Source: an uncultured delta proteobacterium (GTDB lineage Bacteria > Desulfobacterota > RBG-13-43-22). From it: 64,000 nucleotides of DNA. The DNA lies in the NCBI GenBank assembly GCA_963802945.1, contig CAWDKY010000033.1:1-64000 (forward strand), given 5' to 3'. The notes under the pieces were generated by a model. It saw only the letters and a program-made list of their open reading frames with translations. It searched no databases and was not told the origin of the DNA. Positions 34,159-41,982 of this stretch are shown here, in pieces. The first letter of the stretch is position 1, and the number at the start of each line of letters is the position of its first letter. The position numbers and the translations under genes were made by a program.

Positions 34159-34298
34159 GAAATCTTTATTTTTAAGAGAGGCCCCATGATCACAAAAGCT
34201 GGGGATATCGCTTTCTTCTGTCAGTGAATCCGGGACTGGTGGACAGAGGATTATTGAGGCAAAAGGTTATCTTTCGTCAAAAACCTAAAACCTTAACA

Positions 34299-34335
34299 GT
34301 GTCCCCATTTCCAAATTATTAGGGAGGGGTTAGGC
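34299..34335 (-). other. Truncated attC (R'' GCCTAAC only) running into a GGGGACAC motif
   Basis: Minus strand GCCTAAC-ccctccctaataatttggaaat-GGGGACAC; the R'' is exactly complementary to this cassette's 5' core GTTAGGC. Confidence 0.6.
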
Positions 34336-34366: not shown

Positions 34367-34537
34367 TTAACGAGATGAGCGTCGTATGAGTATCAAAACA
34401 CCGACTAAAATAATAATTAACGGCCACCACTGGGCCACGAGTGGACCAAGGTGCGGCAGCCAACCAAAATTGGACAGAAGAAAAATGAGCCCCAACACAA
34501 TTAAAATGTATGCCCCAAACTGAGATCTTGCCCTCAT
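34367..34537 (-). CDS. 56-aa membrane protein (LiaF/DUF5668-like), gene cassette
   Basis: Below the ORF-track length cutoff. AGGAGG RBS, then MRARSQFGAYILIVLGLIFLLSNFGWLPHLGPLVAQWWPLIIILVGVLILIRRSSR*. Confidence 0.8.
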   Translation of the reverse strand: MRARSQFGAYILIVLGLIFLLSNFGWLPHLGPLVAQWWPLIIILVGVLILIRRSSR

Positions 34538-34569
34538 AAAGCCTCCTAAGTAAGATAGCCTTCCTAAGT

Positions 34570-34678
34570 GCCTAACCCTCGTGGCAGCAGCGGCCGAATG
34601 GTTTGCTGGAAATTTTACACTTTCATCGGTTTATATATCACCGCAGCCATTATTCCGCAAATGATATATTTATTCGGC
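34570..34678 (-). other. Degenerate attC site
   Basis: R''-like GCCGAAT overlapping the upstream stop, partial stem GCGG..AATGG/CCATT..CCGC, R' GTTAGGC; 109 bp. Confidence 0.6.
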
Positions 34679-35359
34679 AATTCTTTTATCGGTTACACGT
34701 GGCACTGGTTGTTTTCCCTTCGGACAAATCCAAACACATCGTAAGCAGTAGGGCAAGAGGCCATCAGGACCATGCGGATCATATTCCCCTCTGGCTTTGC
34801 GGTACGATCGACACTGCAGACCTTCAAACGAATTGTCCGAGATCGCCTGCGCCGGACATTCTGAAATGCAGAGACCGCATTCGTCGCAGAATTGATCGCC
34901 TGACAACTTCGAGTGCAGGTCGAGTTCGGCAGTCGTGCCCATAACCCTCAGATGAACCCACGGTCCCCATTCTGGATGAAATAGAAAGGCATTTTGGCCA
35001 ATTTGACCCAGGCCAGCCGCTTGAGCCACGTATCGGAATTGCAGTCCACTCTGCCTCGGATAATCGACGAGTTTCACTTCACGCCCCTCTTGTACCATCC
35101 TCGCCTCGATTGTTCGGCAGACCTCAAGGAGGTGATCATCCGCTGCACAGTGTTCGCTGCCGCTATCTGTTGCATACCACGTCCATTCTTCTTCCGTGGT
35201 TACGTGATGGCCAAGCACGATTGCCGTACTCGCTTGCGGCATGAAACCCGAGAAAAATAATCCCTCGTTTTCTCGCAGGTGCTCGATAGGTACTATGGCC
35301 AAGTCACAGCAAGACCAGGAGTCGATGATTTGAAAAATGTTGTCAGAGTCCTTCATCAT
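34670..35359 (-). CDS. QueG/reductive-dehalogenase-like Fe-S protein, gene cassette
   Basis: AQAAGLGQIG, PEWGPWVHLR, CDECGLCISECP, CLRCVWICP. The ATG follows the core GTTCGAC immediately. Confidence 0.78.
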   Translation of the reverse strand: MMKDSDNIFQIIDSWSCCDLAIVPIEHLRENEGLFFSGFMPQASTAIVLGHHVTTEEEWTWYATDSGSEHCAADDHLLEVCRTIEARMVQEGREVKLVDYPRQSGLQFRYVAQAAGLGQIGQNAFLFHPEWGPWVHLRVMGTTAELDLHSKLSGDQFCDECGLCISECPAQAISDNSFEGLQCRSYRKARGEYDPHGPDGLLPYCLRCVWICPKGKQPVPRVTDKRIAE

Positions 35360-35388
35360 GTCGAACAAGCTATTCTAAAGTCTTCCGG
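35360..35388 (-). other. attI-like site, copy 2
   Basis: CCGGAAGACTTTAGAATAGCTT-GTTCGAC; about 22/26 identical to 37470-37495, with identity ending at the GTT. Confidence 0.65.
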
Positions 35389-35402
35389 TCAGTGGGGTCA
35401 GG

Positions 35403-36337
35403 GGGTCAGGTCTATTTTTTCAACATTATTTATTTTACCTGTGTCCGTATAATACGGCTTATTGAAGAAAAATGTAATCCTAAATACGCAGAAACTTGCT
35501 TCTGGGTGTAACCGTGTCTCTCCACTGCCTTCAATATCCGTTTATTTCTTGCTTCCTTTTTTCGAATCAATTCGGGGGATAATATTTTTTCCAGACTGGG
35601 TCTGTTAATAAAACGTTGGCTTTTTGATATGTCGGGAATTGCCTCTTTCCCCTTCAGATGATCTTTTAAACGTTCCACAAAAGAATCCTCCCCTAGGATG
35701 CTCTGAGCTCTCAAATCCTTCCAAATAGATTCCGATCTTATTCCAGCCCTAACAAACTGGCGATAGATTCCTTCCGCCTTCATTCTTTTGGGTGAAAGTT
35801 GCCCTAAGATCCCATCAACGGTAAGGCAGGAGGGCTTACTTCGCTGCCCTGCTGTAGCCGCATAGCTGCTCCATTTCCACTGGTTCGGGTTTTTTATGAG
35901 TTTTGCCCTTACCGGATTCAGTACGATATAACGGGAAACTTCAAGAAGATGGCTATCTTTTTGCACCAGAATACCCTTGAATCTCCCCTGGAATAAATGA
36001 CCAACGGTTCCATGTCGCTTATTGAACAACTGGGTAAACACCCCATTTAATTGTCTCATCCCAATGGAAAGGTTTCCATCAGGTGTTTCGATAAGCAAAT
36101 GATAATGATTATTCATCAGACAATAGGCATGGCAGAGCCAGTTATAGCGCGTGTTAACCTGGTAAAGGATTTTGAGGAAATCCTCACGGTCGTGATCATC
36201 CTTAAAAATCTCATTTTTGTTATTTCCTCGGCTGGTCACATGATAAAAAGCCCCGGGAAATACTATGCGTAGAGGACGTGCCATGAGTATCCTATATCAT
36301 TACTATATCTTCAATGTCAAGAAAATAGACCTGACCC
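35403..36337 (-). mobile_element. Y1/RAYT-like HUH transposase element bounded by 25-bp inverted repeats
   Basis: 35403-35427 GGGTCAGGTCTATTTTTTCAACATT versus the reverse complement of 36313-36337, GGGTCAGGTCTATTTTCTTGACATT (22/25). Confidence 0.85.
35430..36284 (-). CDS. REP-associated tyrosine transposase-like protein (Y1_Tnp HUH domain + C-terminal HTH)
   Basis: MARPLRI..PGAFYHVTSRGN, CLMNNHYHLL (HUH), GHLFQGRF, YIVLNPVRA, WKWSSY. Confidence 0.93.
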   Translation of the reverse strand: MARPLRIVFPGAFYHVTSRGNNKNEIFKDDHDREDFLKILYQVNTRYNWLCHAYCLMNNHYHLLIETPDGNLSIGMRQLNGVFTQLFNKRHGTVGHLFQGRFKGILVQKDSHLLEVSRYIVLNPVRAKLIKNPNQWKWSSYAATAGQRSKPSCLTVDGILGQLSPKRMKAEGIYRQFVRAGIRSESIWKDLRAQSILGEDSFVERLKDHLKGKEAIPDISKSQRFINRPSLEKILSPELIRKKEARNKRILKAVERHGYTQKQVSAYLGLHFSSISRIIRTQVK

Positions 36338-36398
36338 TAATTTTTCAAACCGGTTTTTCAGGCAAACTGTTCTCCATGGGGTTCTCCTTAATATGCTT

Positions 36399-36511
36399 TG
36401 CTAACGACTGGGTATCAGCGGCGGCGCCGAATTGTCACCGGATCAGGTTTTGCGCCGATTTCCATGCCTCAACACCTGGCTACGCCATCCGCCTGAATGC
36501 CCTGGTTGGGC
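36399..36511 (-). other. Integron attC recombination site
   Basis: R'' GCCCAAC, arm CAGGGCATTCAGGCGGATGGCG pairing with CGCCGCCGCTGATACCCAGTC, R'-like GTTAGCA; 113 bp. Confidence 0.85.
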
Positions 36512-36588
36512 AAATCAGTCTTGCCTTTTGTGTCCTGCTCACAGCGCCTTGACAGAATTTGATAATTTAATGACCGCCCCTCACTCTC

Positions 36589-37449
36589 TTATCCTAAGCC
36601 CTTCCTCCAATTTTCGTTCTTTATCGCATAATCAACAGCTTCGGGAACCATTCTTGTCCCGAAGACAACAGAATACCCGTCAGGAATCATCACGTCAAAG
36701 CGACCAGATTCCGTTTGTATCTGTTTCGGCATGAAAGGTGTGGCCGAAACTGCTCCGATGACCTTGCCAGTCTTGAGCCTCAAAACGGGTGCCCCGCTGA
36801 TGCCTGGAAAAGATGGCCGGTCGAGCCAATAATAATATTCTACTACTGGGGGAAGCCCGTATCCTACGGAAAAAGAGACTATAGCCTTGCTCAAAAGAGG
36901 AAGGGGGTGGAAATCTTCATAATACGTTTCAAACTCAACACCACCACGGGGGTAACCAATAAAAAGCACGTCCTCCCCCATTCTTGCCGGTTCGGTGTCA
37001 AACTCAAGTGGCGAGATGTTGTTGAAGGGCTCCGTCAAATGCATGATGCTTATGTCAATCTTCCAAAGGGGTTCAGTTCCGCTGGTCGGAACTTCGATCA
37101 GAATCGACCCCTCAGTCATAACGGGTTCAGTCGCGTCTTTCTTCTGCCCGACCAGGTACGCTCCCTTTGTCCAAGAGTCAACCACGATTACACGAGGATA
37201 ATTTGCGGCATTGACCTCATCGAAACCTTTAACCGCATGGTATCTTATAACCTTAACCTCATCGGCGCCTTCGACCACATGAAACGCCGTTACCGCGAAA
37301 TTTCCATTCCCTACGATGAATCCAGTTCCGATGCTACTTTTTTCGCCCGTTTTTCTACACTCAACCCTGACGATTGCTGACATCAGCTTGGAAATATAGT
37401 CAGCTTGCGTCTCGGGATTCTTACCCTTAATTTTTTTCCTTTTAGCCAT
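36589..37449 (-). CDS. Trypsin-like serine protease, gene cassette
   Basis: GTGFIV, VTAFHVV (His), DISIM (Asp), PGISGAPV (Ser). Confidence 0.85.
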   Translation of the reverse strand: MAKRKKIKGKNPETQADYISKLMSAIVRVECRKTGEKSSIGTGFIVGNGNFAVTAFHVVEGADEVKVIRYHAVKGFDEVNAANYPRVIVVDSWTKGAYLVGQKKDATEPVMTEGSILIEVPTSGTEPLWKIDISIMHLTEPFNNISPLEFDTEPARMGEDVLFIGYPRGGVEFETYYEDFHPLPLLSKAIVSFSVGYGLPPVVEYYYWLDRPSFPGISGAPVLRLKTGKVIGAVSATPFMPKQIQTESGRFDVMIPDGYSVVFGTRMVPEAVDYAIKNENWRKGLG

Positions 37450-37465
37450 ACGTTCTTACCTTTTG

Positions 37466-37495
37466 CCCCAACAAGTTATTCTAAAGTTTTTCTGG
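37466..37495 (-). other. attI-like site, copy 1
   Basis: CCAGAAAAACTTTAGAATAACTT-GTTGGGG; the core matches the R'' GCCCAAC of the same cassette's attC. Confidence 0.65.
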
Positions 37496-37599
37496 ATAAC
37501 TAAACAAATAAAAGAATCCCATCGGGGATCCCAACGATGGCCTTTGGCTGCTGTGGAGCAGTCAATAAGACGCCAACCCTTTCTAGTTCCAGGTAACCT

Positions 37600-37628
37600 A
37601 TTATAAATGATAAATATTATCTTGACAA
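37600..37628 (-). promoter_or_regulatory. Pc-like sigma70 promoter reading into the cassette array
   Basis: Minus strand TTGTCA-N17-TATAAT, about 130 bp upstream of the attI-like GTT. Confidence 0.65.
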
Positions 37629-37747
37629 TTTATTTCAAACAGTTAACAAAATATATAAGGAGGTCGAGCCCAATGCCTTCGACCTAAGTCCATCTGCCCT
37701 GATGTGGACGTACCTGTCCTCAGCCTAAACCCTGCCTTTAAAGTTTT

Positions 37748-37774
37748 CTGGACCCCGGCTTTCGCCGGGGTGAC
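37748..37774. repeat. Single REP-like palindrome, family B
   Basis: CTGGACCCCGGCTTTCGCCGGGGTGAC. Confidence 0.75.
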
Positions 37775-37882
37775 GGTGTGGGCAACGGAGCTCTTATTTA
37801 GTTAACGTAATTACAGTATTGGGAAAGACCGGACCACCGAATTAAAATAAATTCTGTTTCTCTAATTTTAAGGGAATGACTG

Positions 37883-38404
37883 ATGAACATATTGGATATC
37901 GGTTGCGGGAATCGGAAGATTAAAGGGGCCATCGGTCTGGACAGGAACCCGAGATCCCAGGCCGATGTTTTTCATGACCTGGATGTTCTCCCCTACCCTT
38001 TCGAGGACGATCACTTCGACCGAATCTACGGGATCGATGTGCTGGAACATGTAACCGATGTCCTTCGAACCCTGGAAGAGATTCATCGGATTGGAAAGAA
38101 GGATGCTCAGGTCTTTCTCAGGGTCCCTCATTTTACCAGCACCCTGGCTTACGGAGACCCGACCCATAAACATTTTTTCAATACACAGTCTCTGGATTAT
38201 GTTTGCGGGGGCTTTTCTGAGTATTCGTATAACCCTTCGGTGGTTTTTAAAAAGTTGGGGGTTCGATTAAATTTTTGGAAACTGCATCGTTGGGATGGAG
38301 TGTCCTTCCTGGCTAATCAATTTCCAGGTTATTACGAGAAACTCTTCGCCTTTATGTTTCCGGCCATGAATATCGAGTTTCAGTTGGAAATCATTAAACC
38401 TTGA
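37883..38404 (+). CDS. Class I SAM methyltransferase (Methyltransf_11-like)
   Basis: ILDIGCG, VLEHV, EEIHRI, DPTH. Confidence 0.88.
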   Translation: MNILDIGCGNRKIKGAIGLDRNPRSQADVFHDLDVLPYPFEDDHFDRIYGIDVLEHVTDVLRTLEEIHRIGKKDAQVFLRVPHFTSTLAYGDPTHKHFFNTQSLDYVCGGFSEYSYNPSVVFKKLGVRLNFWKLHRWDGVSFLANQFPGYYEKLFAFMFPAMNIEFQLEIIKP

Positions 38405-38426
38405 AGAGATATTGGTCCGAAAATAA

Positions 38427-38458
38427 AAAAGGGCAAGTCCATTAAGACTTGCCCTTTT
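38427..38458. terminator. Bidirectional intrinsic terminator between the methyltransferase gene and tRNA-Leu
   Basis: AAAAGGGCAAGTC-loop-GACTTGCCCTTTT. Confidence 0.85.
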
Positions 38459-38466
38459 ATTAGCTT

Positions 38467-38552
38467 TGGTGCCGAAGACGGGACTCGAACCCGTACGGAG
38501 TTACCCGCCACCCCCTCAAGATGGTGTGTCTACCAGGTTCCACCACTTCGGC
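38467..38552 (-). tRNA. tRNA-Leu(GAG)
   Basis: GCCGAAG acceptor stem, anticodon loop TT-GAG-GG, long variable arm, GGTTCGAGTCC, encoded CCA; conserved tpiA-secG-tRNA-Leu order. Confidence 0.97.
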
Positions 38553-38564
38553 ACGAGGTATTTC

Positions 38565-38936
38565 CTACTTGCTGATCGGGTTGGCCGGACTCGCGGGAAC
38601 AGTCGGAGCCGCCGGTAACGGAGTTGCGGGAGAACCTGTCGGAATCTTTGTCGGCATTGATTGCTTTTGGCTGGCCTCGGAAGGAGTTCTAATCACCGAG
38701 GAACTGGACCCGGGGCCGTACATAAAAGCCAGGAGCAGAGAAGTGATCATAAAAACCGCAGCAGCGACGGTAGTCAGCTTGGTCAGAAAGGTCGCAGCCC
38801 CGCTGCTTCCAAAGATAGTCTGGCTTGATCCACCAAAGGCCGCTCCCATACTGGCCCCTTTCCCGGTCTGAAGTAAAACAATCAAGATCAGGGCTATACA
38901 AACTATGATATGAATGATTATTGTCACAGTTGCCAT
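38565..38936 (-). CDS. secG: Preprotein translocase subunit SecG
   Basis: VLLQTGKGASMGAAFGG, FLTKLT. Confidence 0.95.
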   Translation of the reverse strand: MATVTIIIHIIVCIALILIVLLQTGKGASMGAAFGGSSQTIFGSSGAATFLTKLTTVAAAVFMITSLLLAFMYGPGSSSSVIRTPSEASQKQSMPTKIPTGSPATPLPAAPTVPASPANPISK

Positions 38937-38942
38937 AACGAC

Positions 38943-39713
38943 TTATTGATTAACCTCCTTGATCAAGGCCAGAAATTTTTCTGCGTTCAGGCTGGCCCCT
39001 CCTACTAATGCCCCGTCAATATCCGGCTCAGCGCATAATGCCCGAATATTTTCCGGGGTGACGCTTCCACCATACACAATCCTTTTCCCCTTTGCAAGGG
39101 GTTTATTAAAACGATCCGCCAGCAATCCTCGAATGAAAGCATGGACTTCCTGGGCCATGGCCGGGGTTGCCGACCTTCCGGTACCGATGGCCCAGACCGG
39201 TTCGTAGGCAATCACCCCCTGGGCAATCGCTTCCATAGACAGCCCCTGGACCGCTTCCAAGACCTGCCGGGTGATGACTTCCTGAATCCTCTCCCCTTCC
39301 CGTTCCTCTAAGGTCTCTCCCACACACAGGACCGGTTTCAAACCGGCCTTCAAACAGGCCGCAAGTTTTTGATGGACCTGGGCATCGGTTTCTCCAAATA
39401 CATGCCTTCGTTCAGAATGTCCTATAAGGCAATAGGAACAACCCACATCTGTCAACATCCGTGTTGAAATTTCTCCGGTAAAGGCCCCGTCCTCAGCCCA
39501 GTGGACATTCTGGGCCGCCACTTGAACGGAGCTGTTCTGGATTGCCCGGCCGAGGGCCTGCAGGGCCGTGAAAGGCGGGGCAATGACCACCTCGATTTGG
39601 ATAGGACTTGGCATCCCAGCCATCAGCGCCCGAAAAAAATCCAGCGTCTCCGGGATGGTTTTAAACATCTTCCAGTTCCCCCCTATCCAGGGGCGACGGA
39701 GATTTTTTTCCAA
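38943..39713 (-). CDS. tpiA: Triosephosphate isomerase
   Basis: GNWKM, IGHSERR, AYEPVWAIGTG, YGGSV, LVGGASL. Confidence 0.97.
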   Translation of the reverse strand: MEKNLRRPWIGGNWKMFKTIPETLDFFRALMAGMPSPIQIEVVIAPPFTALQALGRAIQNSSVQVAAQNVHWAEDGAFTGEISTRMLTDVGCSYCLIGHSERRHVFGETDAQVHQKLAACLKAGLKPVLCVGETLEEREGERIQEVITRQVLEAVQGLSMEAIAQGVIAYEPVWAIGTGRSATPAMAQEVHAFIRGLLADRFNKPLAKGKRIVYGGSVTPENIRALCAEPDIDGALVGGASLNAEKFLALIKEVNQ

Positions 39714-39737
39714 TTTAATTCCTCTCTCAAAGAAAAA

Positions 39738-39764: not shown

Positions 39765-39803
39765 ATCTTTATTAGATTAATGATGATTCATTCCTATCAC
39801 ATC

Positions 39804-39880
39804 GTCACCCCGGTGAAAACCGGGGTCCAGAAGAAAAAATTTCTTTTACCTTACTGGATTCCGGCTTTCGCCGGAATGAC
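39804..39880. repeat. REP-like inverted doublet, family B
   Basis: GTCACCCCGGTGAAAACCGGGGTCCAG ... CTGGATTCCGGCTTTCGCCGGAATGAC. Confidence 0.85.
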
Positions 39881-39932
39881 GGAAACAAACCATTTGAAAC
39901 TTTTATAAATCCATCATTTTTTGTCCCGAATA

Positions 39933-41982
39933 TTATCCCCAAAGAGAAATAATAATCGGCACGATCAACAAGGCCACGATGTTGATAACCTTGATCATCG
40001 GGTTAATGGCCGGACCGGCGGTGTCTTTATAAGGATCGCCGACTGTGTCACCGGTTACGGCTGCTTTATGGGCATCGGATCCTTTTCCGCCGTAAAGGCC
40101 GTCTTCAATGGCCTTTTTGGCATTGTCCCAGGCCCCGCCGCCGGAAGTCATGGAAATGGCCAGGAACAGCCCGGTGATGATCGAACCGATCAGCACCCCG
40201 CCCAAGGCCTTGGGTCCAAGGATAAGTCCGACCAGCACGGGAGTCACAACCGGGATCAGGGCTGGAACCATCATCTGTTTGATGGCACTCTTGGTCACAA
40301 TGTCCACGCATTTGGCGTATTCGGGTTTGGCCTTGCCTTCCATAATCCCCTTGATTTCCCGGAATTGCCGTCGGACTTCTTCGACCACGCCTCCGGCTGC
40401 CGTACCAACGGCTTCCATCAGCAGGGAACCAAAGTAATAGGGTAGCAAACCGCCGATAAACAGGCCGACAATCACAAACGGATCGGCCAATGAAAAGGTG
40501 ACCTTCATGGCTTCGGGGAATGACTTGGAAAATTCGGCAAAAAGCACCAGGGCGGCCAGACCGGCGGAACCGATGGCATAGCCCTTGGTCACTGCCTTAG
40601 TGGTGTTTCCAACTGCATCCAAGGGATCGGTGATCTTGCGGATCTTTTCATCCAGTTCGGCCATTTCGGCAATCCCGCCGGCATTGTCGGTAATCGGGCC
40701 GTAGGAGTCGATGGCCACGACGATACCGGTCATGGAGAGCATGGAAACCGCCGCCAGGGCAATGGCAAAAAGACCGCTGCCGGGATTGGCAAATCCGTTT
40801 CCCAGGGCATAGGCGGCCAGGATAGCCGCACTGATTACCAGACACCGGCCAGCTTGAAGACTTCATGGAGACTGCCAGTCCGGCAATGATATTGGTGGCA
40901 TGTCCGGTCTGAGAGGCTGCGGCAATATGTTTGACCGGTTTAAAGGATTTGGAGGTAAAATATTCGGTGATCACCACCAATAACCCGGTGACCAACAGGC
41001 CGACAACCGCTATCAGGAAGATATTCAGGGTGCTGAACTGGCTGGCTATTTCAGGATGCTTGCCGGCGAATTGATCGGTAGCGAAATAGAAGACGATGGC
41101 CGCCAGGATACCGGCCACAGCCAACCCTTTATACAAGGCGCCCATGATGTACTGACTCTTGCCCAAGCGGACAAAAAAAGTGCCGATGATTGAGGCAATA
41201 ATGGAAATACCACCAATCAGTAGGGGGAATTTTATCCAGGGGGTCCCGTCTCCAAAAACCGTTTTGGCCAAGAGCATGGCCGCCACCAGGGTGACGGTGT
41301 AAGTTTCATAAAGGTCAGCGGCCATACCGGCGCAGTCGCCTACGTTGTCGCCCACGTTATCGGCAATAACCGCCGGGTTCCGGGGATCATCTTCCGGGAT
41401 GCCGGCTTCCACCTTACCGACCAGGTCAGCCCCCACGTCGGCGGCCTTGGTATAAATACCACCGGCAATACGGGCAAAGACGCTCATCAGAGAGCAGCCG
41501 AACCCCAATCCGATCAGCGCATGGGTTTCTTTGGTAATGGCATAAAAAAGGGTGATTCCCAAAAGTCCCAAACCAACGACCATGATCCCGGTAACCGACC
41601 CGCCCTTGAAGGCCACGCCAAGGGCCTTGTTCAGACCGCCGTAAGCGGCTTGAGCGGTACGCACATTAGCCCGCACGGTGACCATCATACCGATATATCC
41701 GGCCAGGGCCGAACCGATGGTCCCGATCAGGAAACCGATAGCCGTCGTCCAGCCTAGGGCTGGAATAAAGCCGATAATCAGAAACAAGACAACGGCCACA
41801 ATGGCTACTGTTCTATATTCCCGGTTTAAAAAAGCCGTTGCTCCTTCCTGAACAGCTGCTGAAATCTCTTGCATCCGGGCACTGCCGGCATCCTGTTTAA
41901 GAATCCAGATGGCGGTAATTATGGAATACAGTACCCCGATAGCGCCGCAAATAATGGCAAAGGTAAAAATATTAAGATCCAT
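39933..41982 (-). CDS. hppA: Membrane H+-translocating pyrophosphatase, predicted K+-independent; frameshift near 40845
   Basis: [36 protein letters not shown]. Confidence 0.95.

Follow-up and report, generated by a model that had tools for sequence, protein, structure and literature searches.

Introduction

Can an integron cassette array that stands apart from any integrase gene still carry a recognisable site of cassette entry? The question is raised by a stretch of 64,000 nucleotides (nt), here called the window, from an uncultured delta proteobacterium. It comprises positions 1 to 64,000 of contig CAWDKY010000033.1 (C33) in assembly GCA_963802945.1 (4.37 Mb, 72 contigs), the genome labelled G000 in our comparisons. 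One short motif occurs in it twice, and each copy ends in a GTT from which a putative gene cassette runs. A preliminary description of the window took the pair for a duplicated attI, the site at which the integrase IntI joins cassettes, with neither copy next to an integrase gene (intI). The passages of Cury et al. (2016, PMC4889954) on this subject describe attI as unknown for most integrons. Because attI is known for only a few integron classes, arrays without intI are usually catalogued as anonymous clusters of attC, the recombination site of the cassettes themselves.

Our answer is that both copies are probably attI-type recombination sites of the chromosomal integrons of a Syntrophales group, and that the roughly 22 such sites of this genome are orphans. 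Direct support comes from the homology of a 195-nt module with intI-adjacent regions of relatives, from cassette boundaries at GTT, from the clustering of attC-type sites and from differences among species in the cassettes at one locus.

The motif in the window

The motif reads ACTTTAGAATA(A/G)CTTGTT and lies on the minus strand at 37487-37470 and 35381-35364. With the bases in front of it, the upper copy is CCAGAAAAACTTTAGAATAACTTGTT (37495 to 37470), which would be the attI core with its R-box triplet GTT, and the lower copy is CCGGAAGACTTTAGAATAGCTTGTT (35388 to 35364). As first described, 17 of the 18 positions up to and including GTT are identical between the two; past GTT they differ, with GGGGCAAAAGG in the upper copy and CGACATGATG in the lower. 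A pattern search of the 64-kb window with up to 3 mismatches gives exactly these 2 sites against a mean of 0.06 in shuffled sequences, and none of 100 shuffles reaches 2. Start codons follow GTT after 20 nt in the upper copy and after 4 nt in the lower.

A module shared with the intI-adjacent region of relatives

The upper copy closes a 195-nt module at 37470-37664 on the minus strand (nhmmer C33:37664-37470, E 3e-46), which ends in the crossover triplet GTT (37472-37470). The module starts at TTTGTCAAGATAATATTTATCATTTATAAT and is common to six copies in the genome, the upper window copy among them. These six long modules align, from TTTGTCAAG through GTT, with the intergenic regions between intI and attI of relatives, and in some of them the alignment reaches the ribosome-binding site of the integrase. 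The window module aligns over its full length with the intI-adjacent regions of five genomes, G007, G002, G001, G021 and G014, all of them related Syntrophales.

In these five genomes the motif lies beside intI and divergent to it. The intI gene, judged by the profile TIGR02249 with a cut-off of 265 bits, is full-length in three of them (354-386 bits), and its start is separated from the motif by 118 nt in G007 (C174), 217 nt in G002 (C47) and 218 nt in G001 (C166, where the motif has 2 mismatches). Fragments of intI stand ~220 nt from the motif in G021 (C31) and ~160 nt from it in G014 (C53). The first cassette of G007 begins at the motif's GTT (GTT|AGCGAG) and matches the R'' of its own attC, CTCGCTAAC, at 9/9 bases; this attC is the first of three canonical ones there. 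The position beside intI, together with the cassette junction at GTT, indicates that the motif is the attI of these integrons. The preliminary description had asked whether a copy abuts the 5' end of an intI and whether other copies head cassettes; in relatives both are the case.

The module contains a promoter-like site, TTGTCA-17-TATAAT (37600-37628, minus strand), which faces the cassettes, has 11/12 consensus matches and is a candidate Pc. It is conserved across all aligned modules, and its spacer contains the palindrome GATAATATTTATC. A further sequence of this kind, TTGnnn-N18-TAGAAT, finishes 7 nt upstream of the motif's GTT. Between these promoter elements and the attI core, the window module has a terminator-like hairpin with its T-run (37513-37537, minus strand), downstream of TTGTCA-17-TATAAT. 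The module at C37:35331 also has one, as read from the aligned sequence; the other four long copies lack it. The module has no R'' partner and no imperfect palindrome of the attC type.

Upstream of the module, 37665-37722 (minus strand) aligns at 83% with G005 and loosely with the intI start region of G002. Here the intI ribosome-binding site and start codons may survive in part (AAGGAGG, then ATG CCT TCG ACC TAA).

Two other roles of the module were considered and found no support. A structured RNA leader is not indicated: the consensus fold of seven modules is a weak one, at -7.2 kcal/mol, and its covariation term has the wrong sign, and in Rfam neither the module nor the GC-rich element treated below belongs to any family, the tRNA-Leu being the sole match. 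Nor does a comparison with the palindrome before lexA, CATACAAATGTATG, show a link to LexA and the SOS response, since it is unlike GATAATATTTATC. CATACAAATGTATG (C28:129100-129181) lies between a TTGACA and the lexA start and is a candidate LexA box of the organism.

Copies across the genome

That the motif occurs twice is true of the window and not of the genome. Nineteen copies with up to 2 mismatches, 8 of which fit the degenerate pattern exactly, are spread over 12 contigs there, and a search with a 45-nt profile yields 22 (E <1). The two window copies are not a local duplication, as had been supposed; they belong to a genome-wide family of orphan attI-type sites, about 22 in number. They also differ in kind: of the two attI sites proposed, the one at 37470 is a full platform, and that at 35364 is only a 5'-truncated core. 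About 18 further matches to the module profile in the genome are 5'-truncated to differing extents.

Conservation stops at GTT in every copy. The triplet is invariant in most, with ATT or GAT in three, and a purine stands directly after it in 15 of 19 copies, as in the R box GTTRRRY. The genes behind the copies are unrelated accessory genes, including those for Mrr, TIR, patatin, SPFH and methyltransferase proteins, and 16 of 30 have no Pfam family.

The module could also be the conserved outer end of a transposable element, for example of the IS91 type, left behind in several locations. IS91-family elements insert beside CTTG or GTTC, and the motif contains CTTG. One relative has a matching arrangement at G004:C38 (L046, 2825-5054), where a 285-aa integrase of the tyrosine recombinase type and an IS91-type transposase (Zn_Tnp_IS91 and Y2_Tnp, 215.8 bits) directly follow a motif copy and begin ~170 nt past it. 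No such fixed pairing with a Y2/HUH transposase was found in the present genome: its Y2 matches, at C25:40675-41169, C53:112512-112883 and C29:68871-68966, have no long module within 40 kb. An element end also does not account for the homology of the module with intI-proximal sequence including the integrase ribosome-binding site, nor for the sequence past GTT, which differs from copy to copy and ends in attC-type sites. We regard this origin of the module as very improbable. The motif site may in addition be a target of the IS91-type element of G004.

Distribution of intI

No intI was found in the assembly. The best TIGR02249 match has 79.6 bits and comes from XerC/D-like genes, and tblastn with five integrases of relatives gave only XerC/D-like genes and three remnants. 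Two of these are N-terminal pieces, of 59 aa on C30 and ~53 aa on C29, each beside a third attI lineage ending in …AAACTATTCAATATATTGTT; the other is a C-terminal 26-aa piece with 81% identity on C41, directly against a module. The statement that neither window copy adjoins intI is correct, and it extends to all other copies in the genome. A site beside the 5' end of intI is present in the five relatives at the homologous position and absent here, and neither the window nor the genome holds a complete integron (intI plus at least one attC). Because the assembly contains no intI and only short remnants of it, the sites are orphans in this genome, and no present activity can be claimed for them there.

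Of 41 genomes (40 related ones and this one), 13 pass the TIGR02249 cut-off, including six from the same genus. A search for the 18-mer that tolerated 1 mismatch was positive in 12 of the 13 genus members other than G000 and in 16 of 20 of the family; a reversed control pattern is absent everywhere. At this threshold the copy number is highest in genomes of the sample that lack intI (G000 14, G005 13, G008 10). Five of six genomes with intI over the cut-off have 1-3 copies; the sixth, G010, has 6, and a contig end truncates its intI match.

Species-representative genomes gave 100 loci with the exact 18-mer, and 52 of them belong to the family. Upstream of these 52, a full-length integrase is present once and a short N-terminal IntI-like piece ten times; in four of the ten cases the piece may be an artefact, read from the module sequence. 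By their record titles, family members occur in metagenome-assembled genomes (MAGs) of Syntrophales and related Thermodesulfobacteriota.

The exact 18-mer is also found on at least 11 contigs of a MAG labelled uncultured Bacteroidales (L056, L059, L064, L073, L078, L082, L088, L105, L123, L124 and L129); none of these loci matched the 195-nt module profile. The integron integrase open reading frames (ORFs) of the genus (L042, L043, L048 and L049, from G002, G007, G004 and G001) are 471-524 aa long, with ~150-210 residues ahead of the SAM-like domain. Their true starts are uncertain, because the first codons of the longest ORFs in G007 and G004 are read from the attI module.

Cassette boundaries and attC-type sites

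If the 18-nt core ends in a G|TT crossover at which IntI would join incoming circular cassettes, the bases from GTT onward should complement the R'' of the cassette's own attC. Such footprints were sought within 4 kb of each copy together with a local hairpin measure, and mismatched heads (456 mismatched pairs) served as the control. A perfect 8-nt footprint occurs at 5 of the 22 copies, and a match of 7/8 at four more. Three of the five perfect footprints stand beside a hairpin scoring at least 14, against a control rate of 1.5% (P 0.0045).

Sites of the attC type were also sought with a covariance model, R1, which has a narrow basis (six seed sequences, with 150 of 458 candidates scored). 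It finds 28 such sites in the genome at E up to 1. Eleven of them lie within 4 kb downstream of an attI-type copy on the same strand, where 0.28 were expected (~39-fold), and these 11 belong to only 6 of the 22 copies. Clear clusters are at C28:182936-185754, on C37 and on C41. Other finders were set aside: an energy-based one was noisy, and nhmmer iterated from six attC seeds stalled at 10-12 matches. A stem-alignment finder is not specific at genome scale, since it gave 80 matches against 101 in the reversed genome, and it was used only locally with matched controls.

One cassette start is joined to both kinds of end. The ORF-less, GC-rich start TTGGCGCCGCC follows an attI-type module, joined at G|TT, at C53:153203, and the same start follows a sequence ending in GTT at C37:12509, C29:199038, C30:107652 and on C16. 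We read the latter as attC ends, with a model match at C37, a weak one at C30 (20.3 bits, E 0.34), and by eye at C29 and C16. The element that begins in this way, right after GTT, is ~170 nt long and occurs at C53:153028-153202, C29:199038-199200, C30:107652-107802, C37:13698-13804 and other places. It contains CGCCAAC; GCCGCATT closes its conserved part, and RRRY-like bases come next. The whole resembles a cassette whose R' has ATT in place of GTT. The attC at C41:22772-22831 likewise ends in ATTGAGC.

These boundaries bear on whether the module could be a shared promoter or regulator-binding unit that takes no part in recombination, with conservation ending at GTT because transcription starts there. 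The strong promoter-like site (11/12) and the TTGnnn-N18-TAGAAT placed 7 nt before GTT agree with such a unit, as do a start codon within 4-120 nt in most copies and the 16 of 22 copies at which R1 detects no attC within 4 kb downstream. It would leave unexplained the 8-9-nt footprints to attC, the cassette start joined to both attI-type and attC-type ends and the enrichment of attC-type sites downstream, and the genes behind the copies share no common pathway. A promoter inside attI belongs to the integron model, so promoter function is more an addition to the attI reading than a rival to it; as a full explanation it is improbable.

The same locus in other species

In two related species, G005 and G010, the corresponding place next to the methyltransferase, tRNA-Leu and TIM genes is likewise occupied by an attI. 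No intI is present at this locus in any of the three species, and the cassettes at the site differ among all three. The first 958 nt of the G005 locus (L165:1-958) match window 34422-35379 at 95%, and L165:4982-6897 matches window 37810-39724 at 91%; the module matches at 83%. Between the module and a gene for an iron-sulfur (Fe-S) protein, G005 carries 3.8 kb with four other ORFs. G000 and G005 have the junction of this Fe-S gene, TTGTT|CGACATG, in common and diverge upstream of the 18-mer. In G010 the attI is shorter (…GAAAACTACTTAATAACTTGTT) and heads a different set of cassettes again. A shared locus without intI and with differing cassettes indicates that the orphan attI is old and that its cassettes have changed since the species split.

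The first cassette of G005 (L165, C94; 4730-4745) is joined at AATAAC|TT, where TTG|TT is usual, with an 8/8 footprint to its attC, CCATATAAC. The junction that agrees with this R'', AATAAC|TTATATGG, is displaced from the usual crossover by three bases in the upstream direction, which suggests that the attI-type site may have a second usable crossover position.

The differences among species also bear on the view that the copies are fossils, each of them once a complete integron whose intI decayed in place, long inert, with no service in trans and no recent turnover. The intI remnants beside modules on C41, C30 and C29 are what such decay would leave, and so are the 52 family copies across species, with one full-length integrase and ten short pieces upstream. 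In-place decay alone does not predict that three species without intI at the window locus carry different cassettes while the flanks of G000 and G005 remain 91-95% identical, which suggests that cassettes were exchanged at the locus when its integrase had already gone. The truncated cores inside arrays, in the window and at C41:21396-21462, are also not simple in-place decay. We consider this history unlikely, though with a larger claim to attention than either a promoter unit or an element end.

The array in the window

Under the attI interpretation the window would hold a small array. The upper copy would close a complete platform, formerly the region between intI and attI, with its strong promoter-like site facing the cassettes. 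A peptidase cassette with its attC would follow, then an ORF-less stretch with a truncated attI core, split by an insertion sequence (IS), then the Fe-S gene and one or two decayed cassettes. The cassettes would have been installed by an integrase acting in trans or since lost.

The gene of the first cassette (36589-37449, minus strand) encodes a 286-aa trypsin-like serine peptidase (Pfam Trypsin_2, E 5.6e-14). When the DNA of this region was searched against the 20 other family genomes, nothing beyond its attI part was matched. The probable attC of the cassette is 113 nt long (36399-36511, minus strand), with R'' GCCCAAC (36511-36505) and R' GTTAGCA (36405-36399). Its arms resemble those of the attC at C37:12505-12568 (47.3 bits); blastn against the genome gave no relatives. 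The bases GTTGGGGCAAA at the upper copy match the reverse complement of TTTGCCCAAC (36514 to 36505) at 6/7 core bases, and at 10/11 if, by our own reading of the sequence, one G of the G-run is dropped as a one-base slip.

About 65 nt of ORF-less sequence separate this attC candidate from an element of the IS200/IS605 type (35403-36337, minus strand), which has 25-nt inverted repeats and a Y1 transposase gene (36284-35430; Pfam Y1_Tnp, E 1.3e-12) and is inserted between the attC of cassette 1 and the lower attI core. The transposase has a C-terminal helix-turn-helix. Three near-full copies of the element are present in the genome, in the window, at C16:245749-246688 and at C30:107809-108731, and each of them lies within sequence of integron cassettes or of attC type. 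An attC-like site at C17:146878 (+907) is interrupted by another, fourth Y1 gene.

The lower copy of the motif (35364-35388, minus strand) is a 5'-truncated attI core of the delta-attI type within the array. It matches only positions 18-45 of the 45-nt profile in nhmmer and retains only ~25-28 nt of the module. With the IS excluded it lies ~80 nt behind R' GTTAGCA of the first attC, the place of a partial attI in delta-attI-type cassettes, and the same truncated-core layout is found at C41:21396-21462. The gene behind it (34670-35359, minus strand; 95% DNA identity in G005) encodes a 4Fe-4S cluster domain protein (Pfam Fer4, E 1.6e-5, over the cut-off), and the ATG at 35359 is its likely start.

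In the preliminary description the bases from GTT approximately complemented the R'' of each cassette's own attC. This holds approximately for the first cassette. It does not hold for the second, where the proposed R'', GCCGAAT (34678 to 34672), lacks AAC, overlaps the stop codon and matches at 5/7 bases. The first attC finds support in sequence likeness, not in the covariance model or in folding energy, and the second was not borne out.

Two further sites lie downstream on the minus strand. The sequence at 34570-34600 ends in an R'-like GTTAGGC (34576-34570) and contains CCGCTGCTGCCACGAGGGTTAGGC, which resembles the L'-R' arm of the group's attC; R1 gave no match there, and it is possibly the 3' half of a decayed attC. 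A weak attC-type site at 34291-34335, after an ORF for a 55-aa membrane protein, has R'' GCCTAAC (34335-34329), the exact complement of the GTTAGGC at 34576 (R1 34283-34335, 7.6 bits, E 2.8). The array thus has one 113-nt attC candidate, by likeness only, and two weak or decayed sites.

Its conserved border is marked by a methyltransferase gene (37883-38404) and by tRNA-Leu(GAG) (38467-38552, minus strand), which flanks the locus. Beyond the module, a hairpin repeat CACACCGTCACCCCGGCGAAAGCCGGGGTCCAGAA, resembling repetitive extragenic palindromes, occurs three times in the window (37746-37780, 39798-39832 and 39851-39882) and dozens of times in every genome of the genus. An H+-pyrophosphatase gene (39933-41982, minus strand) appears as two overlapping ORFs, one matching profile positions 2-363 and the other 389-645; a frameshift, a sequencing error or a split gene could be the cause.

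Several observations weigh against the attI interpretation. The full-length intI of G009 (L047) has no motif in the 8.5 kb fetched, even with 5 mismatches in 20 allowed, and intI is missing from the present assembly. Seventeen of the 22 copies have no perfect footprint, and 16 have no attC detected by R1 within 4 kb; the basis of R1 is itself narrow. The upper-copy footprint, counted strictly, agrees at only 3/5 bases beyond the triplet. The attC candidate of cassette 1 receives only 9.1 bits from R1 (E 1.1) and folds no better than shuffled sequences on either strand (z -1.4 and -1.0). The Fe-S cassette has no recognisable attC; R1 found no attC-type structure at 34678 to 34672. The integrase and IS91-type transposase behind the motif at G004:C38 indicate that another mobile element also uses or carries the site. 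Finally, no L box, direct repeats or integrase-binding repeats are defined in the site.

Comparison with known systems

The site nevertheless resembles the attI paradigm, attI1, in position and form. In relatives it stands between intI and the first cassette, it has the G|TT crossover of an R box GTTRRRY, it lies near a promoter-like site reading into the cassettes, and it would act as double-stranded DNA, lacking the hairpin symmetry of attC. Its sequence is unrelated to attI1 of class 1 integrons. A textbook integron has one attI beside its integrase, whereas this genome has ~22 copies and no intI.

Clusters of attC sites without an integron integrase (CALINs) are likewise cassette arrays with no intI nearby, and the passages of Cury et al. 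(2016, PMC4889954) on their origin hold that they may arise from integrase loss in one of several integrons. CALINs are defined by attC alone, whereas the arrays described here keep a recognisable attI and a promoter-like site at their head. Having no more than one good attC, the window array may fall short of a CALIN (at least 2 attC).

Cassettes of the delta-attI type, with partial attI sites that are reported to be functional for IntI1, are known from mobile integrons (Gonzales Machuca et al. 2026, PMC12901181). At the lower window copy and at C41:21396-21462, too, a partial attI stands in the array where an attC is expected. The cassettes of that account carry pieces of attI1 or attI2 and belong to resistance integrons of classes 1 and 2 borne by mobile elements; the present ones lie on the chromosome of an environmental anaerobe, in many copies and without an integrase. 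The attG sites (bioRxiv 10.1101/2022.09.11.507474), at which cassettes enter genomes outside att sites, also place cassettes at dispersed chromosomal positions away from the integrase. They differ markedly from classical att sites in sequence and structure, according to the corresponding passage of PMC12901181, whereas each of the present sites is homologous to the attI of the group itself, and several retain the entire platform module. In the open-access literature searched, supplements excluded, we met with no account of attI sites in Syntrophales that are orphaned or present in multiple copies.

Conclusions

Group-specific attI sites can be recognised here by sequence, and arrays without an integrase can retain both the docking site and a promoter-like site. 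Such attI-type sites can reach ~20 copies per genome, and the cassettes at one orphan site vary between close species.

A bolder model is possible, and we hold it tentatively. The copies may form a distributed integron, with dozens of pads of attI plus promoter scattered over the chromosome, kept at the same loci across species, lacking integrases of their own and served in trans by an integrase encoded elsewhere or visiting on a mobile element. If so, each captured cassette would be expressed at once, at many places, instead of queuing in a single array, and the truncated attI cores inside arrays would be a means by which the pads multiply.

The recognition of the site makes it testable whether arrays without intI are dead or served in trans, and it provides a simple sequence tag for locating where cassettes enter in metagenomes of Syntrophales.

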